Virus record (IMG/VR): IMGVR_UViG_2695420485_000005 | DNA from: a virus | Taxonomy: Duplodnaviria; Heunggongvirae; Uroviricota; Caudoviricetes | Direction: 5' to 3' (one strand) | Length of the DNA: 5,936 nucleotides | Shown here: in pieces, positions 279 to 5,936 of the stretch | Position numbering within the stretch: the first letter of the stretch is position 1 | How the letters are laid out: each line of letters begins with the position of its first letter | Made by a program: the position numbers and the translations under genes | The notes under the pieces: model-generated | What the model was told of the DNA's origin: nothing | Databases searched by the model: none | Seen by the model: the letters and a program-made list of their open reading frames with translations, nothing else

Positions 279-569
279 TCATCTTTTAACTCCATATACC
301 GCCAATACCCGTTTCATCGCTGCACTCTGGCGACACTCCTTAAAAATCAGGTTCGTGCTCACCTTTCCTTCCCGTTCTTCCCTGGTAGCAAACCGGTAAT
401 ACACCGTTCGCCAGACCTTACCTTCGATAACCAGAAGACCTGCCCGTGCCATTTTAGCCGCGGCCTGATTTATGCTGGTTACTGTTGCGCCTGTTAGCGC
501 GGCAACGTCCGGCGCACAGAAGCTATTATGCGTCCCCAGGTAATGAATAATTGCCTCTTTGCCCGTCAT
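279..569 (-). CDS. ren: Ren protein (lambda ren homolog, 96 aa)
   Basis: The 96-aa product MTGKEAIIHYLGTHNSFCAPDVAALTGATV... matches lambda Ren almost residue for residue as I recall it. Its start overlaps the P stop (ATGA overlap at 566-569), as in lambda. Confidence 0.85.
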   Translation of the reverse strand: MTGKEAIIHYLGTHNSFCAPDVAALTGATVTSINQAAAKMARAGLLVIEGKVWRTVYYRFATREEREGKVSTNLIFKECRQSAAMKRVLAVYGVKR

Positions 570-1267
570 ACACTTGCTCCTTTCAGTCCGAACTTAGCTT
601 TAATTTCTGCGATCTTCGCCAGCGCCTGAACATGATTTAGAGGTCTGCCGCCCATGACAGGAAGTTGTTTTACTGGTTCAGGGATCACCTCACCACGATT
701 AATTCTCGCAGTCATATGGACAAGCTCATCTGCGGCCTTGCGCCGTAATTCCGCGTCAGTCAGCGCATTGGCCCGCATGTTCTGGTACAGGTTGGTAACC
801 AGCCAGTAGTGCGCGTTTGATTTCCACGGATAAGACTCTGCATCCGGATACAGGCCACGCTTCCGGCAATACTCGTAAACCATATCAACCAGCTCGCTGA
901 CGTTTGGCAGTCCGGCGATAACGGATGCTTCTTCCCGGCACCATGCAACAAACTGCCCGGGTGATGGAAGAAATGGTCGATTCTGCCGACGGGCTACGCG
1001 CATTCCTGCGTTAACCTGTTCCATTGTGGTGATCCCGTTTTCCCGGAAAGCCAGAACCCACTGGCGGCGGATTTCGTTCAGTTCGTTCTGGTCACGGTTA
1101 GCCAGGCTCGCCGGGAAAGTTGCCAGTAACTGGCTGAACACACCGTTGATGATCTGCGCTACCTGCTGTACCTGCGGCTTTTCGTCGTACTGTTCCGGCA
1201 TGTTGTTGGCGATCCGACGCATCTGCTCACGGTCAAAATTAACCATCTGTGCGGCGATGTTTTTCAT
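566..1267 (-). CDS. P: Replication protein P (DnaB helicase loader), 233 aa
   Basis: The 233-aa product MKNIAAQMVNFDREQMRRIANNMPEQYDEKPQV... has the same length and near-identical sequence to lambda P from memory. Its start overlaps the O stop (ATGA at 1264-1267). Confidence 0.95.
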   Translation of the reverse strand: MKNIAAQMVNFDREQMRRIANNMPEQYDEKPQVQQVAQIINGVFSQLLATFPASLANRDQNELNEIRRQWVLAFRENGITTMEQVNAGMRVARRQNRPFLPSPGQFVAWCREEASVIAGLPNVSELVDMVYEYCRKRGLYPDAESYPWKSNAHYWLVTNLYQNMRANALTDAELRRKAADELVHMTARINRGEVIPEPVKQLPVMGGRPLNHVQALAKIAEIKAKFGLKGASV

Positions 1268-2202
1268 AAATCCACCCCGTAAATCCAGTCAGTGTTTGTC
1301 AGGTCGAGTTTTGGTTTTCCGGCTGTCACGCCTGCCTGTTGCTTGTTACGGTTGATTTCGAGTTGGGTCCACTTGTCGCGGAGTTTGGCCGGACTTAGCA
1401 CGTTACCGGACCAGAAGTTGTCCTGGCATGCCCAGCGGAACAGCACGCACATGTCGCGGTGGTTACGTCCGTCACGTTCACGCATCAGGCGGATATCGTT
1501 AGCCCACCCTGCAAAATTCGGTTTTCTGGCTGATGGTGCGATGGTCTTCACCATGTCAAACATCCACTCTGCGGCGGTCAGGTCTTCTGCTGTTCCCCAC
1601 TTGCTGCCGCTCTGAATTGCAGCATCCGGTTTAACCACAGAAAGATCGTTTTCTGGCTGGTCAGAGGATTCGCCAGAATTCTCGGACGAATAATCTTTTC
1701 TTTTTTCTTTTGTAATAGTGTCTTTTGTGTCCCCCTGTTTTGAGGGATAGCAATCCCCTAATTTGAGGGATGTTTTATCCCTCGTTTTAGGGGATTTTCC
1801 CTCGTTTTGAGGGATGTCCCTCATTTTAGGGGAACCTCCCTCGTTTTGAGGGATGCACCATTCTGAGATGTTTTTATTTGGTCCAAACATGCCGCCTTGC
1901 TGCTTGATAATATTCATTCTGACGAGTTCTAACTTGGCTTCATTGCACCGTTTGACAGGTAACTTTGTAATCTCGCTAAGTTGAGAATCGGTGATTCTGT
2001 CCATTGGTTTATTCCACCCATAGGTTTTACGCAGAATGGCAAGCAGCACTTTAAACTGTCGCTTGGTCAGATCTGCGCCTGAATAAGCCTCAATCAGCAT
2101 ATTTGATAGTCTGGCGTAACCATCATCGAGATCTGCCACATTACGCTCCTGTCCGGCAAAGTTACTTCTGCCGAAGTTGAGTATTTTTGCTGTATTTGTC
2201 AT
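1264..2202 (-). CDS. O: Replication initiator protein O, 312 aa (lambda O is 299 aa); contains the origin iterons
   Basis: Product MTNTAKILNFGR...DWIYGVDL matches lambda O from memory. It carries an in-frame 13-aa tandem duplication in the linker (IPQNEGGSPKMRD / IPQNEGKSPKTRD) that corresponds to extra iterons. The iteron array and AT-rich segment lie inside the ORF as in lambda. Confidence 0.95.
   Translation of the reverse strand: MTNTAKILNFGRSNFAGQERNVADLDDGYARLSNMLIEAYSGADLTKRQFKVLLAILRKTYGWNKPMDRITDSQLSEITKLPVKRCNEAKLELVRMNIIKQQGGMFGPNKNISEWCIPQNEGGSPKMRDIPQNEGKSPKTRDKTSLKLGDCYPSKQGDTKDTITKEKRKDYSSENSGESSDQPENDLSVVKPDAAIQSGSKWGTAEDLTAAEWMFDMVKTIAPSARKPNFAGWANDIRLMRERDGRNHRDMCVLFRWACQDNFWSGNVLSPAKLRDKWTQLEINRNKQQAGVTAGKPKLDLTNTDWIYGVDL
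1684..1730. other. AT-rich DNA-unwinding segment of the replication origin
   Basis: The tract TAATCTTTTCTTTTTTCTTTTGTAATAGTGTCTTTTGTGT lies immediately downstream of the iterons in the O reading direction, the same arrangement as ori-lambda. Confidence 0.7.
1731..1853. repeat. ori iterons: six tandem O-binding repeats (consensus on the O-sense strand TCCCTCAAAACGAGGGA)
   Basis: Six copies at about 20-bp spacing: 1731-1748 CCCCCTGTTTTGAGGGAT, 1754-1770 ATCCCCTAATTTGAGGGA, 1777-1794 TCCCTCGTTTTAGGGGAT, 1798-1815 TCCCTCGTTTTGAGGGAT, 1817-1833 TCCCTCATTTTAGGGGA, 1837-1853 TCCCTCGTTTTGAGGGA. Each is an internally palindromic 17-18mer. Lambda has four. Confidence 0.85.
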
Positions 2203-2211: not shown

Positions 2212-2291
2212 TGTTGATAGATCCAGTAATGACCTCAGAATTCCATCTTGATTTGTTCAGAACGCTCGGTCTTGCACACCGGGCGTTTTTT
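2212..2291 (+). ncRNA. oop: oop-like antisense RNA (about 80 nt) complementary to the 3' end of cII
   Basis: A candidate promoter sits upstream and a strong intrinsic terminator ends at 2291. The transcript would overlap the last ~57 nt of cII (2235-2291) in antisense. Size and position match lambda oop (77 nt). Confidence 0.55.
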
Positions 2292-2534
2292 ATTGGTGAG
2301 TTCATCAAGCGCATACTTAAAAGCCCTGCTAATCGGACTGATGTCTGATGCCATTCCGAAAGCACACAAGACCGAAGCAATAAATCTCCAGTCCGTTCTG
2401 CTTATCTTCGATTCATGACAGCCAATCATCTTTGCCAGACCGCGCTGGGTAAGCGTTGACAGGTTGATGAGTAAATCAGTTTCAGCGCGATCAATTTCTC
2501 GCTGTGATAGTTTGCTGTAACTTGTTTGTTCCAT
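2235..2534 (-). CDS. cII: cII transcriptional activator (99 aa)
   Basis: The C-terminus ...LTNKKRPVCKTERSEQIKMEF matches the lambda cII C-terminus (TNKKRP..TERSEQIQMEF) from memory, while the N-terminal two thirds diverge. Position between cro and O is canonical. Confidence 0.9.
   Translation of the reverse strand: MEQTSYSKLSQREIDRAETDLLINLSTLTQRGLAKMIGCHESKISRTDWRFIASVLCAFGMASDISPISRAFKYALDELTNKKRPVCKTERSEQIKMEF
2262..2291 (+). terminator. Rho-independent terminator (t_oop)
   Basis: Stem ACGCTCGG (2262-2269) / CCGGGCGT (2279-2286) with one mismatch and a 9-nt loop, followed by TTTTT(T)ATT on the plus strand. It lies inside the cII 3' coding region on the opposite strand. Confidence 0.7.
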
Positions 2535-2550
2535 TTCTTAAGATTTCCAA
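2512..2550 (+). promoter_or_regulatory. Candidate pRE (cII-activated promoter) with a cII-box-like direct repeat
   Basis: TTGC-N6-TTGT (2512-2525; lambda cII site is TTGC-N6-TTGC) within the 5' end of cII on the opposite strand, oriented toward cro and cI as in lambda. The -10 is not clear. Confidence 0.35.
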
Positions 2551-2619
2551 TAGTGAATAGCTAGTTGAAAGGTATGCGTGGAAACGCATATGGCCTTAGT
2601 TGGTCAGATATATTGGGAC

Positions 2620-2665
2620 TCGCTTTGTCAGCGACGTAGGACGAATGTCCATTGTGAAAAGAGCG
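2620..2665 (-). promoter_or_regulatory. nutR: boxA (CGCTCTTTT) plus boxB hairpin (TCGCT-GACAA-AGCGA)
   Basis: On the minus strand, boxA CGCTCTTTT (rc of 2657-2665) begins 7 nt after the cro stop. boxB is a 5-bp stem with a GACAA loop (rc of 2620-2634), separated from boxA by a 22-nt spacer. The same CTACG-N-CGCTGACAAAGCG core recurs upstream of N. Confidence 0.6.
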
Positions 2666-2672
2666 GTGTTAC

Positions 2673-2906
2673 TTATGCAGCCGATGCTCTACGCGATACG
2701 AACACTAGGTTTTCCTTTTTCACAGGTTTATAACCCGTGAAATTACGAGTAGCTTCTTCGATTGCATTCGCTTTATCAGGGGAAGCTCTTCGAAATCCAT
2801 ATGCAATCTGGTCAAGATAGCCAACTGAAGTTTTCGCTAATGCGGCGAGTCGCTTCCATTCCTCACTAGAAGCCTCTTTTCGCCAGCGTAGTAGTTCATT
2901 ACTCAT
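2673..2906 (-). CDS. cro: Cro-like HTH repressor (77 aa), non-lambda
   Basis: Small protein with a helix-turn-helix-like segment (TSVGYLDQIAYGF), first gene leftward of the operator region and divergent from cI. Good SD (GGAGG, rc of 2911-2915) 5 nt before the ATG. Confidence 0.75.
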   Translation of the reverse strand: MSNELLRWRKEASSEEWKRLAALAKTSVGYLDQIAYGFRRASPDKANAIEEATRNFTGYKPVKKENLVFVSRRASAA

Positions 2907-2933
2907 TAGTGCCTCCGTTTATCACACAGAACA

Positions 2934-3003
2934 ACTTTACCATTTTGATAAATAATCCGCAATGTAAATTTATCATATTGCGTATTTATCCATTTGCTAA
3001 ATA
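2934..3003. promoter_or_regulatory. OR operator region with divergent pR / pRM (17-bp TTTAYC-N5-GATAAA-type sites)
   Basis: Between cro and cI. 17-bp near-palindromes: 2936-2952 TTTACCATTTTGATAAA and 2985-3001 TTTATCCATTTGCTAAA, plus a weaker site 2969-2985 TTTATCATATTGCGTAT. Candidate pR on the minus strand: -35 TTGCGG (rc of 2957-2962), 17-bp spacer, -10 TAAAGT (rc of 2934-2939). pRM could not be pinned down. Confidence 0.55.
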
Positions 3004-3019
3004 GAGGGAAAATTGTGAG

Positions 3020-3724
3020 ATGGAAAACAAAGATATTCGCAAATCGAATCTGGCGTTTTTGCTAGATGAGCATAAAAAAATCGCGGGTAACACTAATGCA
3101 AGCTTTGCCGATAAGCTTGGGGTTAGCCCTTCTCAACTCACGCAAGTCTCCGGTGAAAAAAGCACTCGAAACATAGGGGATAAACTAGCAAGAAAATTTG
3201 AAGCCGCGCTTGGGTTACCTAATGGGTGGCTTGATTTGGTACATGATGTAACACCAATTGCATCATGCTCAGATTCTTTAACTTTTGTCGGTCAGGTAAG
3301 AAAAGGGTTAGTGCGCGTGGTTGGTGAGGCAATTCTTGGTGTTGATGGTGCCATCGAGATGACCGAAGAGCGCGATGGGTGGCTCAAAATTTATAGCGAT
3401 GATCCAGATGCCTTTGGTCTTCGTGTGAAAGGAGACAGCATGTGGCCCAGAATAAAATCAGGAGAATATGTACTCATTGAGCCTAACACCAAAGTATTCC
3501 CGGGTGATGAGGTGTTTGTCAGAACCGTTGAAGGACACAACATGATTAAGGTTCTTGGCTATGACAGAGATGGAGAATACCAATTTACAAGCATTAACCA
3601 GGATCACAGGCCTATAACGTTGCCTTATCATCAAGTAGCAAAGGTGGAGTATGTAGCTGGTATTCTGAAGCAATCTCGCCATCTGGATGACATCGAGGCA
3701 AGGGAGTGGCTGAAAAGTTCGTGA
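3020..3724 (+). CDS. cI: cI-type prophage repressor (234 aa): N-terminal HTH plus C-terminal LexA-like S24 autopeptidase domain
   Basis: N-terminus has an HTH-like segment (SFADKLGVSPSQLTQVSG). C-terminal domain has the Ser/Lys dyad context typical of LexA/cI (GDSMWP ... NMIKVL). Divergent from cro across the operators; SD AGAGGGA upstream. Confidence 0.9.
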   Translation: MENKDIRKSNLAFLLDEHKKIAGNTNASFADKLGVSPSQLTQVSGEKSTRNIGDKLARKFEAALGLPNGWLDLVHDVTPIASCSDSLTFVGQVRKGLVRVVGEAILGVDGAIEMTEERDGWLKIYSDDPDAFGLRVKGDSMWPRIKSGEYVLIEPNTKVFPGDEVFVRTVEGHNMIKVLGYDRDGEYQFTSINQDHRPITLPYHQVAKVEYVAGILKQSRHLDDIEAREWLKSS

Positions 3725-3784
3725 CTTCATCGTCACATAGCTGGTAACCAGTGGCCAGAAGAAACGTTTGGGTGAGGAGGATAG

Positions 3785-4126
3785 ATGGCGTTCACTGACC
3801 TTGAATATCAAGCGGTCAAAAAAGAAGTTCACCAATTCATTGAAAGCATAAGGCCGCCTGAACATATCCGCAATGAACTGGATATTGTTTATAGCATCAA
3901 TGACCAAACGATAGATATCGGCGAACAGCGCCCCGTGTGGCAGGGCAACCCAGGTGAAACAAACATCCTGCCATCAGCAAGAATCAAGTACATACGTTCT
4001 CTGGATAGATGGAAAATCTATTGGATGCGGAAGGATATGAAATGGCATCAGTACAGTACTGAACTTTCGCTGACTGATGCGCTTGAGCTTGTGCGTGCTG
4101 ACCCGGATTGCTGCTTCTTCGGATGA
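3785..4126 (+). CDS. Hypothetical protein (113 aa), first gene of the cargo cassette downstream of cI
   Basis: SD GAGGAGG (3774-3780) 4 nt upstream of the ATG. Same strand as cI, 60 bp after the cI stop. No motif I can assign; ends in ...DPDCCFFG. Confidence 0.6.
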   Translation: MAFTDLEYQAVKKEVHQFIESIRPPEHIRNELDIVYSINDQTIDIGEQRPVWQGNPGETNILPSARIKYIRSLDRWKIYWMRKDMKWHQYSTELSLTDALELVRADPDCCFFG

Positions 4127-4196
4127 GTGAAGAGACGTTTGGATGATGGATGATCGCAGAGATGCTCGTAGAGCATACAGCGATGCAGGAGAATTT

Positions 4197-4631
4197 ATGG
4201 CACTTAATTTAGAAAGAATATCTTTTATAACCCCATTTGATAGCAGCGAAGAACCCAACCAACCGACGCTTAATTTTACATGCAATGAATTTCCTGCGCG
4301 GCTATCAATTGATTTCAGGGTTGGTATGATCGGGTTGAAACCAAATTCAAGATATAATTTGGGTATTATGGTAATCCCCGCGCACCTAATTATAAAAAAA
4401 GGTGAGGAAATTCAATTCCCTGACGGCTCTTCGGAATCAGTTTCACTTTTCATCGATACGAAAGATAGCCATTTTGAAACAGGGGTTGGCGGACAGGTAA
4501 TAGTAACATTGAAAGAAATTAGGGTCCCAGCTAAAGGGCTGTATAGTGTTATAGGGATATTGCAAGATAATGAAGACCCTAAAAATGAACTTCATAAAAA
4601 TGAATCATTTTTCACCGTAGAGCTATTATGA
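4197..4631 (+). CDS. Hypothetical protein (145 aa from ATG 4197; maximal ORF from 4143 = 162 aa), AT-rich, translationally coupled to the downstream gene
   Basis: The in-frame ATG at 4197 has a good SD (AGGAG 4187-4191, 5-nt spacer), whereas the ATG at 4143 has none, so I prefer 4197. The stop overlaps the next start (ATGA at 4628-4631). The region is visibly AT-rich compared with the flanking phage genes. Confidence 0.55.
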   Translation: MALNLERISFITPFDSSEEPNQPTLNFTCNEFPARLSIDFRVGMIGLKPNSRYNLGIMVIPAHLIIKKGEEIQFPDGSSESVSLFIDTKDSHFETGVGGQVIVTLKEIRVPAKGLYSVIGILQDNEDPKNELHKNESFFTVELL

Positions 4632-5248
4632 GTGACGACAGTAATTTAAATAATCATGGAAAGCAAGACACCAACATATCTGAAAGCCGGAGGTTGAAGG
4701 TTGTTGGCGGTTCCGATTTTGAGGCTGAATTTGATAATTCTCCCACCAAGGTGCAAAATAATTACATAAAACCGCCACAAACGGAGGAAGAAGTGGGAAC
4801 GATCAGCAGAGAGGAACTTGATGCTCGCTTAGCTGCTAATAAAGCAGAGATGGAGTCTATTGCTTCTTCCATTAGGGCTGACATGGCTCTATCTCGTGAA
4901 AGCGTTAATGTCCAATTTGCATCACTTAATGCAGCCATAAGCTCTCTATCGTCCAAGATCGATGGAAAGATGGATAGCGCTGCTGGCGATATAAAAGCAA
5001 TTAATGGGAGATTCGAAGGAATTCAAGGACAAATAACAGGGGTTAATACCGCAATTAGTGGTGTTCAGTCGGGTATTTCTATACGATTAGCCATTTTTAG
5101 TGTCATTATCGCTGTAATAGTTGCGATTCCCGGGCTGGTATCAGCTTTAAAGTCAGACCACGTACCTTTGCAACAGCCTTCCACTTTGCAAGCGCCGCCA
5201 CAAAATACCCAGCCAACAGACAACAAAAAAATCACTCCCCAGCATTAA
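4628..5248 (+). CDS. Hypothetical tail-anchored membrane protein (206 aa): cytoplasmic coiled-coil/repeat region, single C-terminal TM helix, Pro/Gln-rich tail
   Basis: Hydrophobic stretch LAIFSVIIAVIVAIPGLVSAL near the C-terminus. The preceding region shows an ~11-residue periodicity (GDIKAINGRFE / GIQGQITGVNT / AISGVQSGISI). C-terminal tail is PLQQPSTLQAPPQNTQPTDNKKITPQH. No signal peptide. Confidence 0.6.
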   Translation: MSDDSNLNNHGKQDTNISESRRLKVVGGSDFEAEFDNSPTKVQNNYIKPPQTEEEVGTISREELDARLAANKAEMESIASSIRADMALSRESVNVQFASLNAAISSLSSKIDGKMDSAAGDIKAINGRFEGIQGQITGVNTAISGVQSGISIRLAIFSVIIAVIVAIPGLVSALKSDHVPLQQPSTLQAPPQNTQPTDNKKITPQH

Positions 5249-5256
5249 CGCATTAA

Positions 5257-5282
5257 CCCGGCCTCAGCGCCGGGTTTTCTTT
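5257..5282 (+). terminator. Rho-independent terminator ending the cI/cargo operon (tIMM-like)
   Basis: Stem CCCGGC (5257-5262) / GCCGGG (5269-5274), 6-nt loop, followed by TTTTCTTTG. It lies 9 nt after the stop of the 206-aa gene. Confidence 0.7.
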
Positions 5283-5462
5283 GCCTCACGATCCCCACAC
5301 CTAAAAACACATAACCAATTGTATTTGTTGAAAAATAAATAGATACAACTTGCTAAACAACGCAATCCAGATCTCCCTCAAATCTCTTTATTTATCCTGT
5401 CGAATTCCTACAACAAAATAAAACACCATAAGAATCAATACGATATTTGAAAACCAAGAGAA

Positions 5463-5505
5463 TTTATCATTTTGCTATTGTCATTAATTTATCATTCCGA
5501 TAAAG
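5463..5505 (+). promoter_or_regulatory. OL operators with candidate pL
   Basis: A perfect 17-bp palindrome TTTATCATTCCGATAAA (5488-5504) and an adjacent site TTTATCATTTTGCTATT (5463-5479) 25 bp apart share the half-site used in OR. Candidate pL: -35 TTGTCA (5478-5483) with a poor -10 (ATAAAG/GATAAA, 5499-5505), oriented toward N. Confidence 0.5.
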
Positions 5506-5574
5506 TTCACCCATCAGCAGGACGCACTACTCACCAGGGCGGTGAATATACAACGATTCGAATATGAATCTACG

Positions 5575-5589
5575 GCGCTGACAAAGCGC
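5575..5589 (+). promoter_or_regulatory. nutL boxB hairpin (GCGCT-GACAA-AGCGC)
   Basis: 5-bp stem with a GACAA loop, preceded by CTACG exactly as in nutR. It lies in the leader between the putative pL and N. No convincing boxA was found upstream (best is a weak CGCACTACT at 5523-5531). Confidence 0.6.
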
Positions 5590-5754
5590 AATAACCAAAG
5601 TGAACTTTGGGGTGTGGTGAAGGGTTCATGGACGGGAATATGTCGCACGTAAAGCGGCGAGGCCTGCGGGACTATTGCCGAATTGAAGTAGGCCGAAACA
5701 GGTCGAAATGGGTCTCCCACCTACCACACCACCAAAGTTCATCAGGAGGTCTAT

Positions 5755-5936
5755 ATGACACGCAGAACTCAGTTCAAAGGCAATTCACGTTCTCGTCGTC
5801 GTGAGCGTTTAAAGGCAAAGGCATTAGCTAACGGCGTACTGGCCCGCGAAGAAGCAATAAGTTCAGAAGTATTACACCGCCCTACTCTAAGCAGAGCGCA
5901 GATTCAGGCTAAAGGTACTCACGAAACGCCTGAGCG
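5755..5936 (+). CDS. N: N-type transcription antitermination protein, 5' portion (runs off the window end)
   Basis: ATG at 5755 with SD AGGAGG (5744-5749). The translation MTRRTQFKGNSRSRRRERLKAKALANGVLAREE... has an arginine-rich motif near the N-terminus as in N proteins, and I recall this N-terminus from Stx-phage (H-19B/933W-type) N. The open frame continues to the window end. Not in the ORF track because there is no stop in the window. Confidence 0.8.
   Translation, partial: MTRRTQFKGNSRSRRRERLKAKALANGVLAREEAISSEVLHRPTLSRAQIQAKGTHETPE

Follow-up and report, generated by a model that had tools for sequence, protein, structure and literature searches.

A two-gene module in the rexAB position of a lambdoid prophage: a predicted tail-anchored coiled-coil protein and its apparently exchangeable partner

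What might two small genes be doing between the repressor gene and the PL/N region of a lambdoid prophage? We considered this question for the virus record IMGVR_UViG_2695420485_000005 of IMG/VR, a stretch of 5,936 nucleotides that is referred to below as the window. Here a gene for a 206-aa putative membrane protein (4628–5248; the target gene) directly follows a gene for a 144-aa protein (the partner gene), both on the plus strand. Comparison of related loci suggests that the partner gene and the first part of the target gene, which encodes the head of the protein, have been swapped together against an otherwise constant core, and this modular pattern appears to be new. The two genes would form an accessory module transcribed in the lysogen, whose role is most likely Rex-like phage exclusion, although we put this assignment forward tentatively.

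The target gene is real and is under strong purifying selection, because in comparisons of its core with homologues from other loci the nonsynonymous divergence (pN, 0.11–0.29) is far below the saturated synonymous divergence (pS, 0.77–0.91). The open reading frame (ORF) extends from the ATG at 4628 to the stop codon at 5246–5248, and its product matches phrog_5820, a phage family without an assigned function, over nearly its whole length (E=3.6e-76, residues 1–201 on profile positions 1–199 of 200). A word-based search returned 28 clusters of homologues, all from Enterobacterales, and an exhaustive search with a profile hidden Markov model returned 288 representatives at E≤1e-3 and 100 at E≤1e-10, most of them 150–270 aa long. 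An earlier reading of the window made without database searches (the sequence-only reading) had seen no sequence match for this protein, a statement that these results contradict. The figures given below for family architecture and for Pfam refer to 50 sampled relatives, all 50 of which match phrog_5820. There is no characterised member among the homologues, and a literature search that left most subscription journals outside its reach returned no publication on the family, on genes 35/36 of phages HK542 and HK244, or on the DUF3024 protein encoded upstream in the window.

How is the target gene related to its neighbour? We read 54 loci, from Escherichia, Klebsiella, Enterobacter, Cedecea, Leclercia, Salmonella, Yersinia, Pectobacterium, Xenorhabdus and metagenomes, and in all 54 a small ORF of 84–162 aa lies directly upstream of the target homologue on the same strand, preceded in most loci by a cI-like repressor gene. 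In the window the stop codon of the partner gene overlaps the start codon of the target gene as ATGA; the same overlap is found in Cedecea, and the gaps elsewhere range from −1 to 20 nt. The upstream proteins belong to at least five families without detectable mutual similarity, namely a beta-sandwich superfamily that includes the partner in the window (phrog_5893/5881), a family of about 95 aa, another of about 99 aa, a 120-aa CxxC...CxxC family (phrog_4293) and an 84-aa helical type. First, the N-terminal heads of the target homologues cluster according to these partner families (U0 with N0, U2 with N1, U3 with N2, U4 with N6, and U1 with N3, N4, N5 and N7), and when heads from different partner types are compared, pN and pS are roughly the same. 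Second, the cores do not follow the partners: the core of the window protein is 70% identical to cores of the U3 type, which have a Zn-ribbon partner, versus 59–66% to other cores of the U0 type, and one U2-type core is nearest to a U1-type core in a neighbour-joining tree without support values. Core identity therefore appears to be independent of partner type. Because the heads follow the partners and the cores do not, the unit of exchange would be the partner gene together with the 5′ part of the target gene, and exchange in this form argues for joint action of partner and head, for which mutual binding would be the simplest basis.

The layout shared by the family consists of five parts: a variable N-terminal head of about 40–110 aa, a strongly conserved helix (consensus S-R-E-E-L-D-A-K-L-x-x-N-K-A-E...), Gly-rich repeats that vary in number and end in G-I-Q-S-G-I-S-T-R/K-L, a transmembrane (TM) helix, and a tail. 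In the target gene these parts are placed as follows.

4628..4804, plus strand: residues 1–59, variable N-terminal head, predicted to be disordered (predicted local distance difference test, pLDDT, below 50 over most of it)
4805..4963, plus strand: residues 60–112, conserved helix (SREELDARLAANKAE...), helical in the AlphaFold2 (AF2) model with pLDDT 84–90
4964..5086, plus strand: residues 113–153, Gly-rich heptads GKMDSAA, GDIKAIN, GRFEGIQ, GQITGVN, TAISGVQ and SGISIR
5087..5149, plus strand: residues 154–174, single TM helix LAIFSVIIAVIVAIPGLVSAL, placed by Kyte-Doolittle hydropathy and by the AF2 helix at 149–174
5150..5248, plus strand: residues 175–206 and stop codon, Pro/Gln/Thr-rich tail, defined by composition and containing the conserved P184

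Residues 60–112 are the most conserved cytoplasmic segment of the family, with R61, E63, A66, L68, K72, A73, E74, M86, R90, E91 and Q96 invariant or nearly so. The TM helix, with a Kyte-Doolittle mean of 2.71 over 19 residues, has no counterpart elsewhere in the protein and bears a small-xxx-small face (S/G158, A162, A166) and a Pro-Gly pair; a single C-terminal TM segment is present in 49 of the 50 relatives and a second hydrophobic segment in none. The sequence-only reading had proposed a long N-terminal region with a coiled coil, one hydrophobic helix near the C-terminus and a low-complexity Pro/Gln/Thr tail, and this layout holds across the family. The tail length that it gave, 33 aa, needs a small correction to 32 aa, half of which are P, Q or T (6 P, 6 Q and 4 T). 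In the AF2 monomer a long helix at residues 61–139 (pLDDT up to 90 in 61–100) is followed by a break and then by the TM helix at 149–174; Foldseek comparison of this model with viral structures gave no match. One TM segment near the C-terminus and no N-terminal signal sequence, the maximum hydropathy of the first 30 residues being low, place the protein in the operational class of tail-anchored proteins, with the 32-aa tail at the long end of the usual definition. Because the protein lacks a signal peptide, the TM helix comes after about 150 charged residues and the positive-inside bias, although weak, is in the expected sense (K/R 1.46 before the helix versus 1.0 after it), we infer an N-in/C-out topology, in which the tail is presumably periplasmic. 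A distant relative, P0123 (E=3.7e-11), combines a signal-peptide-like N-terminal segment with a coiled coil and a C-terminal TM segment; its coiled coil would be periplasmic, and the protein may be a mere coiled-coil look-alike.

Might the periplasmic part be the active one? Superinfection exclusion at the envelope, for which P22 SieA, HK97 gp15 and lactococcal Sie2009 are the comparators, would have the membrane-anchored protein block genome entry across the inner membrane without killing the cell, perhaps through its TM helix and a conserved PIIIQVP-type tail in the periplasm. Genes of this kind often adjoin repressor genes (reviewed in PMC11436027), the target protein is presumably expressed in lysogens and is predicted to reside in the membrane, and the motif QPIIIQVPQ after the TM helix is kept in 29 of the 50 relatives. 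However, without a signal peptide the protein should have about 150 of its 206 residues in the cytoplasm, and the copy of the motif in the window protein is degenerate. Family tails range from 5 to 65 aa (19.5% P and 17% Q), and several clades have tails of 5–8 aa, so that the periplasmic part would be dispensable, which weakens any mechanism that depends on the tail. Envelope exclusion also offers no role for a cytoplasmic, swappable partner and head, and we regard it as unlikely.

The sequence-only reading had described at least three tandem 11-residue repeats before the TM helix and had taken such hendecads as a sign of amphipathic membrane-binding helices. Neither point survives for this protein: the period is 7, and the repeats form a Gly-rich coiled coil with canonical a/d heptads. 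The three peptides that it quoted lie at residues 120–130, 131–141 and 142–152. Self-similarity over residues 120–152 peaks at an offset of 7 (z=5.0) versus z=2.9 at an offset of 11, hydrophobic Fourier power over residues 60–152 is 1.58 at a period of 3.5 versus 0.24 at 3.67, and the core positions (122, 125, 129, 132, 136, 139, 143, 146 and 150) alternate strictly in steps of 3 and 4. Insertions and deletions among the homologues measure exactly 7 or 14 residues. The hendecad reading fails because the offset of 7 exceeds that of 11, the period is 3.5 and the length changes come in sevens, and we dropped the hendecad amphipathic membrane-binding helix as a candidate. Glycines at heptad positions 1 and 5 yield the secondary signal at offsets 4 and 11; G127, G131, G138, G145 and G149 are invariant among the homologues. 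The a/d heptads suggest a coiled-coil stalk. Under these protein repeats Tandem Repeats Finder detected no tandem repeat at the DNA level.

True hendecads do occur in a distant subclade (P0055, P0056, P0058, P0061 and others), where the offset-11 signal is near 2.2 versus 0.2–0.6 for offset 7. Units such as LNAKFDGIDKS, LNAKVDGISES and INGKIEGLNTA stand there in place of the heptads of the window protein, and their number varies so widely that the proteins range from 159 to 365 aa. The family stalk would therefore be built from either unit in variable number.

The partner gene likely occupies 4197–4631 (144 aa), because an AGGAG sequence lies 5 nt before the ATG at 4197 and every homologue of the partner is 143–144 aa long. 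An alternative start, the ATG at 4143, would give 162 aa, the form called in RefSeq; in HK542 a start of this type overlaps the stop codon of cI. The partner is predicted to be a soluble 7-strand beta-sandwich (AF2, pLDDT 71, predicted template modelling score 0.65). Comparison of this model with known folds returned only generic immunoglobulin-like, FN3 and carbohydrate-binding-module sandwiches together with uncharacterised phage proteins, and the partner has no match in PADLOC.

Could a known family account for either protein? Scans of the target, the partner and the 50 relatives against Pfam, NCBIfam, PADLOC and PHROGs yielded nothing beyond coiled-coil noise and PHROGs without a function. 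The generic coiled-coil match of the window protein scored 19.6 bits, below the gathering cut-off of 38. CCDC90-like proteins (DUF1640; MCUR1/CCDC90B) share the layout of a head, a coiled-coil stalk and a C-terminal TM anchor; their model (PF07798) gave no match to the window protein and sub-threshold matches in 16 of the 50 relatives (best 32.9 versus 33.5 bits, again P0123). Baculo_PEP_C was likewise sub-threshold in 29 of the 50, as was NPV_P10, and these matches probably reflect coiled-coil composition rather than homology. Weak leads to alpha-pore-forming toxins of the ClyA family were seen over target residues 51–170, with MakE in NCBIfam (E=0.006) and SmhB in the PDB (E=0.014). The MakE match scores 15.6 bits against a cut-off of 360, and SmhB is the best hit of a PDB search with the family profile that returned nothing significant, so both lie far below the thresholds for membership.

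The sequence-only reading had also likened the protein, in architecture only, to small tail-anchored coiled-coil proteins and to phage holin/XhlA-like membrane effectors. The likeness to XhlA stands, as XhlA of PBSX-type lysis cassettes likewise has an N-terminal coiled coil and a single C-terminal TM segment. It does not extend to family or context: the XhlA model (PF10779) matches neither the window protein at E≤0.1 nor the 50 relatives at E≤0.01, and XhlA is shorter and is encoded beside a holin and an endolysin, whereas the target gene lies in a repressor operon with cI, DUF3024, the partner gene and a terminator. We therefore rejected XhlA membership. A broader possibility is a toxin-antitoxin or holin/antiholin-like pair, in which the partner would check a tail-anchored membrane toxin, with prophage stabilisation or lysis timing as the outcome. 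The architecture resembles not only XhlA but also small membrane toxins, and the two genes are tightly coupled, the membrane gene never being without its upstream partner in the 54 loci. Against this, the family lacks any XhlA match and is encoded in a lysogenic operon far from the lysis genes; with 206 aa and a long conserved coiled coil the target is far above the size of type I or holin-like toxins; and neither a DNA-binding domain nor another antitoxin-like feature was found in the partner by the family scans and the fold comparison. Such a pair seems most unlikely.

A similar comparison applies to ElaB, YqjD and YgaM (DUF883), tail-anchored coiled-coil proteins of E. coli that act in stationary-phase physiology. 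As predicted for the target, they are small, reside in the inner membrane through a C-terminal TM segment and have a helical N-terminal part in the cytoplasm; unlike the target, they end directly after that segment and are encoded by chromosomal core genes without a coupled partner gene. These proteins, and the fact that many prophage accessory genes are not defences, make it conceivable that the module is a moron that benefits the host outside phage-phage conflict, for example through tolerance of envelope stress, ElaB/YqjD-like ribosome tethering or colonisation. However, there is no DUF883 signal in the 50 relatives, the distribution is strictly prophage-borne, and a sensor-like head and partner that are swapped quickly would fit an arms race better than physiology. 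We consider a host-fitness role very unlikely, and Rex-like exclusion, to which the position of the module also points, remains the preferred assignment.

By ORF listing and family scans, the window is the immunity and replication region of an E. coli lambdoid prophage, with the following elements around and including the pair.

279–569, minus strand: ren
566–1267, minus strand: P
1264–2202, minus strand: O
2235–2534, minus strand: cII
2673–2906, minus strand: cro-like gene
3020..3724, plus strand: cI-type repressor with helix-turn-helix (HTH) and S24 peptidase parts (Pfam Peptidase_S24, 3.8e-16; phrog_4 'transcriptional repressor')
3785..4126, plus strand: DUF3024 gene, 113 aa (Pfam DUF3024, 2.4e-31; PADLOC candidate PDC-S43, 7.2e-42)
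4128..4146, plus strand: fossil 3′ end of a lambda-type cI, reading EETFG-stop (translation ...SEETFG*)
4197..4631, plus strand: partner gene, 144 aa (phrog_5893)
4628..5248, plus strand: target gene, 206 aa (phrog_5820)
5255..5284, plus strand: intrinsic terminator, an 8-bp GC-rich stem followed by UUUUCUUUG

The plus strand of the window corresponds to the leftward direction of lambda, and the target gene is therefore in the position of rexAB, after cI and before PL/N. The cI-type repressor gene, which RefSeq labels a LexA family regulator, is the first gene of the lysogenic operon that includes the target gene, and the terminator at 5255..5284 ends this operon. The terminator has a folding energy of −17 kcal/mol (z=−3.2) and is the sole plus-strand terminator-like site within 2500–5936, none being predicted between cI and 5255; the homologous site is labelled 'terminator' in the immunity-region records of HK542 and HK244. 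The window is 100% identical to a prophage in E. coli S1-IND-01-A, in which the three genes after cI are annotated merely as DUF3024 or hypothetical. In HK542, which has lambda immunity, the order is cI, a 144-aa gene, a 206-aa gene, terminator, PL and N, and DUF3024 is absent. The GC content of the two-gene cassette is 0.39–0.44 versus 0.50–0.55 in the O and P genes, and the lower value is typical of an acquired accessory gene (moron).

Does the DUF3024 gene belong to the cassette? It is 98% identical to a copy that stands alone behind cI in dozens of Stx1- and Stx2-converting phages, those of the 933W type carrying only cI and DUF3024 there, and it is missing from HK244 as well as from HK542. 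Given its solitary occurrence in the Stx phages and its absence from both HK phages, the cassette comprises two genes (4197–5248), with DUF3024 as a separate accessory module, and a three-gene cassette including DUF3024 was dropped on the same grounds. The only match of the locus in PADLOC-DB 2.0, to the candidate single-gene system PDC-S43, comes from the DUF3024 gene. Directly after the stop codon of this gene, the EETFG-stop fossil is near-identical in alignment to the end of the HK542 cI gene. Similarity to HK542 begins at position 4128 of the window, and similarity to the Stx phages stops at 4165. The fossil at 4128–4146 marks the recombination joint of cassette capture, and it shows that the cassette once lay directly behind a lambda-immunity repressor and was then recombined behind a 933W-type cI and DUF3024.

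Might the pair serve the repressor that precedes it? A factor of the lysis-lysogeny switch or of prophage maintenance could affect repressor stability, induction or host proteases, with the membrane anchor perhaps sequestering the partner or a host factor. The phage 434 gene product Hex has a reported effect on RecA-mediated cleavage. RexA acts on the lysis-lysogeny switch (bioRxiv 10.1101/2021.04.19.439022), which provides a further precedent. The pair was placed in the cI operon in every genus examined, apart from exceptions in Xenorhabdus and Yersinia, and the conserved charged helix at residues 60–112 could bind a conserved host protein. In the Xenorhabdus locus (L013, 2900–4435), the one locus returned by a profile scan of genome contigs, the pair follows genes for a 656-aa protein and a lipoprotein. 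A degraded Yersinia locus (L006, 5000–6700) has the pair behind DinI and beside Mu-like tail genes. The upstream repressors are, however, unrelated to one another (lambda cI, 933W-type, short HTH-only and others), which makes a repressor-specific role unlikely; there is no repressor gene within about 3.3 kb upstream of the pair in Xenorhabdus, and DinI takes its place in Yersinia. Diversifying, swappable heads would also be atypical of a housekeeping regulator. Altogether we judge a switch function quite unlikely and return to exclusion of the Rex type.

The resemblance to RexAB of lambda is positional and organisational. Both modules lie 3′ of cI on the same strand with an intrinsic terminator before PL/N, both consist of two genes, one for a soluble and one for an inner-membrane protein, and both are presumably expressed in lysogens. 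RexB is polytopic, with four TM segments, and RexA is a 279-aa DNA-binding protein (PMC11077077). The target, by contrast, has one C-terminal TM segment and a coiled coil, a single hydrophobic segment being the rule across the family, and the soluble partner here is a predicted 144-aa beta-sandwich that, with the head, would be exchangeable among at least five families. With no homology and another membrane topology, the module is not a member of RexAB; that it works like RexAB is a possibility that we again advance with reserve. The interval between cI and N has been described as a mosaic hotspot, with RexAB and BstA among its contents (PMC8585504, citing Degnan 2007). Two more defences of prophage immunity regions are RemAIN, in which an ATPase is combined with an immunity protein and a HEPN nuclease (PMC13043305), and GiPD474 of Gifsy (PMC13043305, PMC12724215). 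Together with BstA of BTP1 and gp30/gp31 of Sbash, they resemble the present module as lysogen-expressed accessory genes beside a repressor in a mosaic hotspot, but BstA is a single DNA-binding abortive-infection protein and all four comprise unrelated proteins with no tail-anchored coiled-coil component. Sbash is a mycobacteriophage, and its gp30/gp31 have been described as a soluble sensor and a membrane protein.

How might such a module work? The PRM transcript, as the observed gene layout would have it, would run through cI, DUF3024, the partner gene and the target gene to the terminator, and the ATGA overlap would couple translation of the last two. The target protein would insert through its single C-terminal TM helix with its N-terminus inside, and might oligomerise, with the heptad coiled coil and the small-xxx-small face of the helix as contacts. 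The beta-sandwich partner may bind the variable head and act as the specificity or sensor part, as their co-variation and joint shuffling suggest. An infection cue might then alter the complex of partner and head, and the coiled-coil/TM core would act on the inner membrane, speculatively by depolarisation or leak, as in abortive infection, or by halting a step of the invading phage that depends on the membrane. Defence systems usually combine a variable sensor with a constant membrane-anchored core. That the target is the effector of the cassette, as the sequence-only reading had suggested, is plausible, and this idea is strengthened because the coiled-coil/TM core is constant while the partner and head vary. 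It is somewhat doubtful, although conceivable, that phrog_5820 and its partner represent a previously unrecognised modular anti-phage system, in which a constant tail-anchored effector would disrupt the inner membrane and interchangeable cartridges of partner and head would be swapped by recombination inside the effector gene.

Several points weigh against an exclusion or defence function. The function proposed appears wholly inferential for every member of the family. Homology to RexA or RexB is absent for both proteins in Pfam, PADLOC and NCBIfam, and no PADLOC model matches the target, the only hit in PADLOC-DB 2.0 being LmuB at E=0.016, which is noise. A single TM helix with a coiled coil is no recognised pore or channel fold, and the AF2 monomer of the target is weak, with a mean pLDDT of 58 and disordered ends. 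The co-variation of head and partner could result from linkage instead of binding, and the rexAB slot can hold genes that serve the switch, with RexA and 434 Hex as reported cases. Finally, the module is rare: it is present in 51 of 5426 complete E. coli genomes (about 1%), and HK542 and HK244 are its only carriers in 50,697 phage records. The E. coli copies are always single and chromosomal, and are annotated 'hypothetical protein (x2)'.

The position gives the question a wider interest. The cI-N interval of lambdoid phages is the classical home of RexAB and is now recognised as a hotspot of prophage defence, and to our knowledge the mechanism of RexAB is still unresolved after decades. The phrog_5820 module fills the same slot with a much simpler two-protein content, a coiled-coil protein with one TM helix and a predicted 144-aa beta-sandwich, and it is directly testable, as it is present in HK542, a cultured and sequenced phage, and in about one in a hundred complete E. 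coli genomes. The shuffling of partner and head against a constant core predicts that the cartridge sets specificity and the core carries out the action. Should the module be a defence, it would show that prophages diversify sensing without re-inventing the effector; if it is a modular anti-phage system as described above, it would contain the first defence effector of this architecture and would illustrate, in nature, how plug-in sensors are exchanged across a gene boundary. If it is not a defence, it is still a conserved gene pair that would be expressed alongside the repressor.

Some features at the downstream border of the cassette are also of note. A perfect 8-bp direct repeat (GCATTAAC twice, 5242–5257) extends across the stop codon of the target gene into the stem of the terminator. 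Between the terminator and the end of the window (5285–5936) there is no annotated gene, and the window has no Rfam match. A promoter-like site on the plus strand at 5478–5506 could be PL. The terminator is followed next, in the source prophage, by a truncated 'regulator' pseudogene, so that an N-like antiterminator may be degraded there. In E. coli ESDR8 (NZ_CM169472.1) an IS3-family transposase gene is inserted inside the stretch from cI to the terminator (window 3700–5400).

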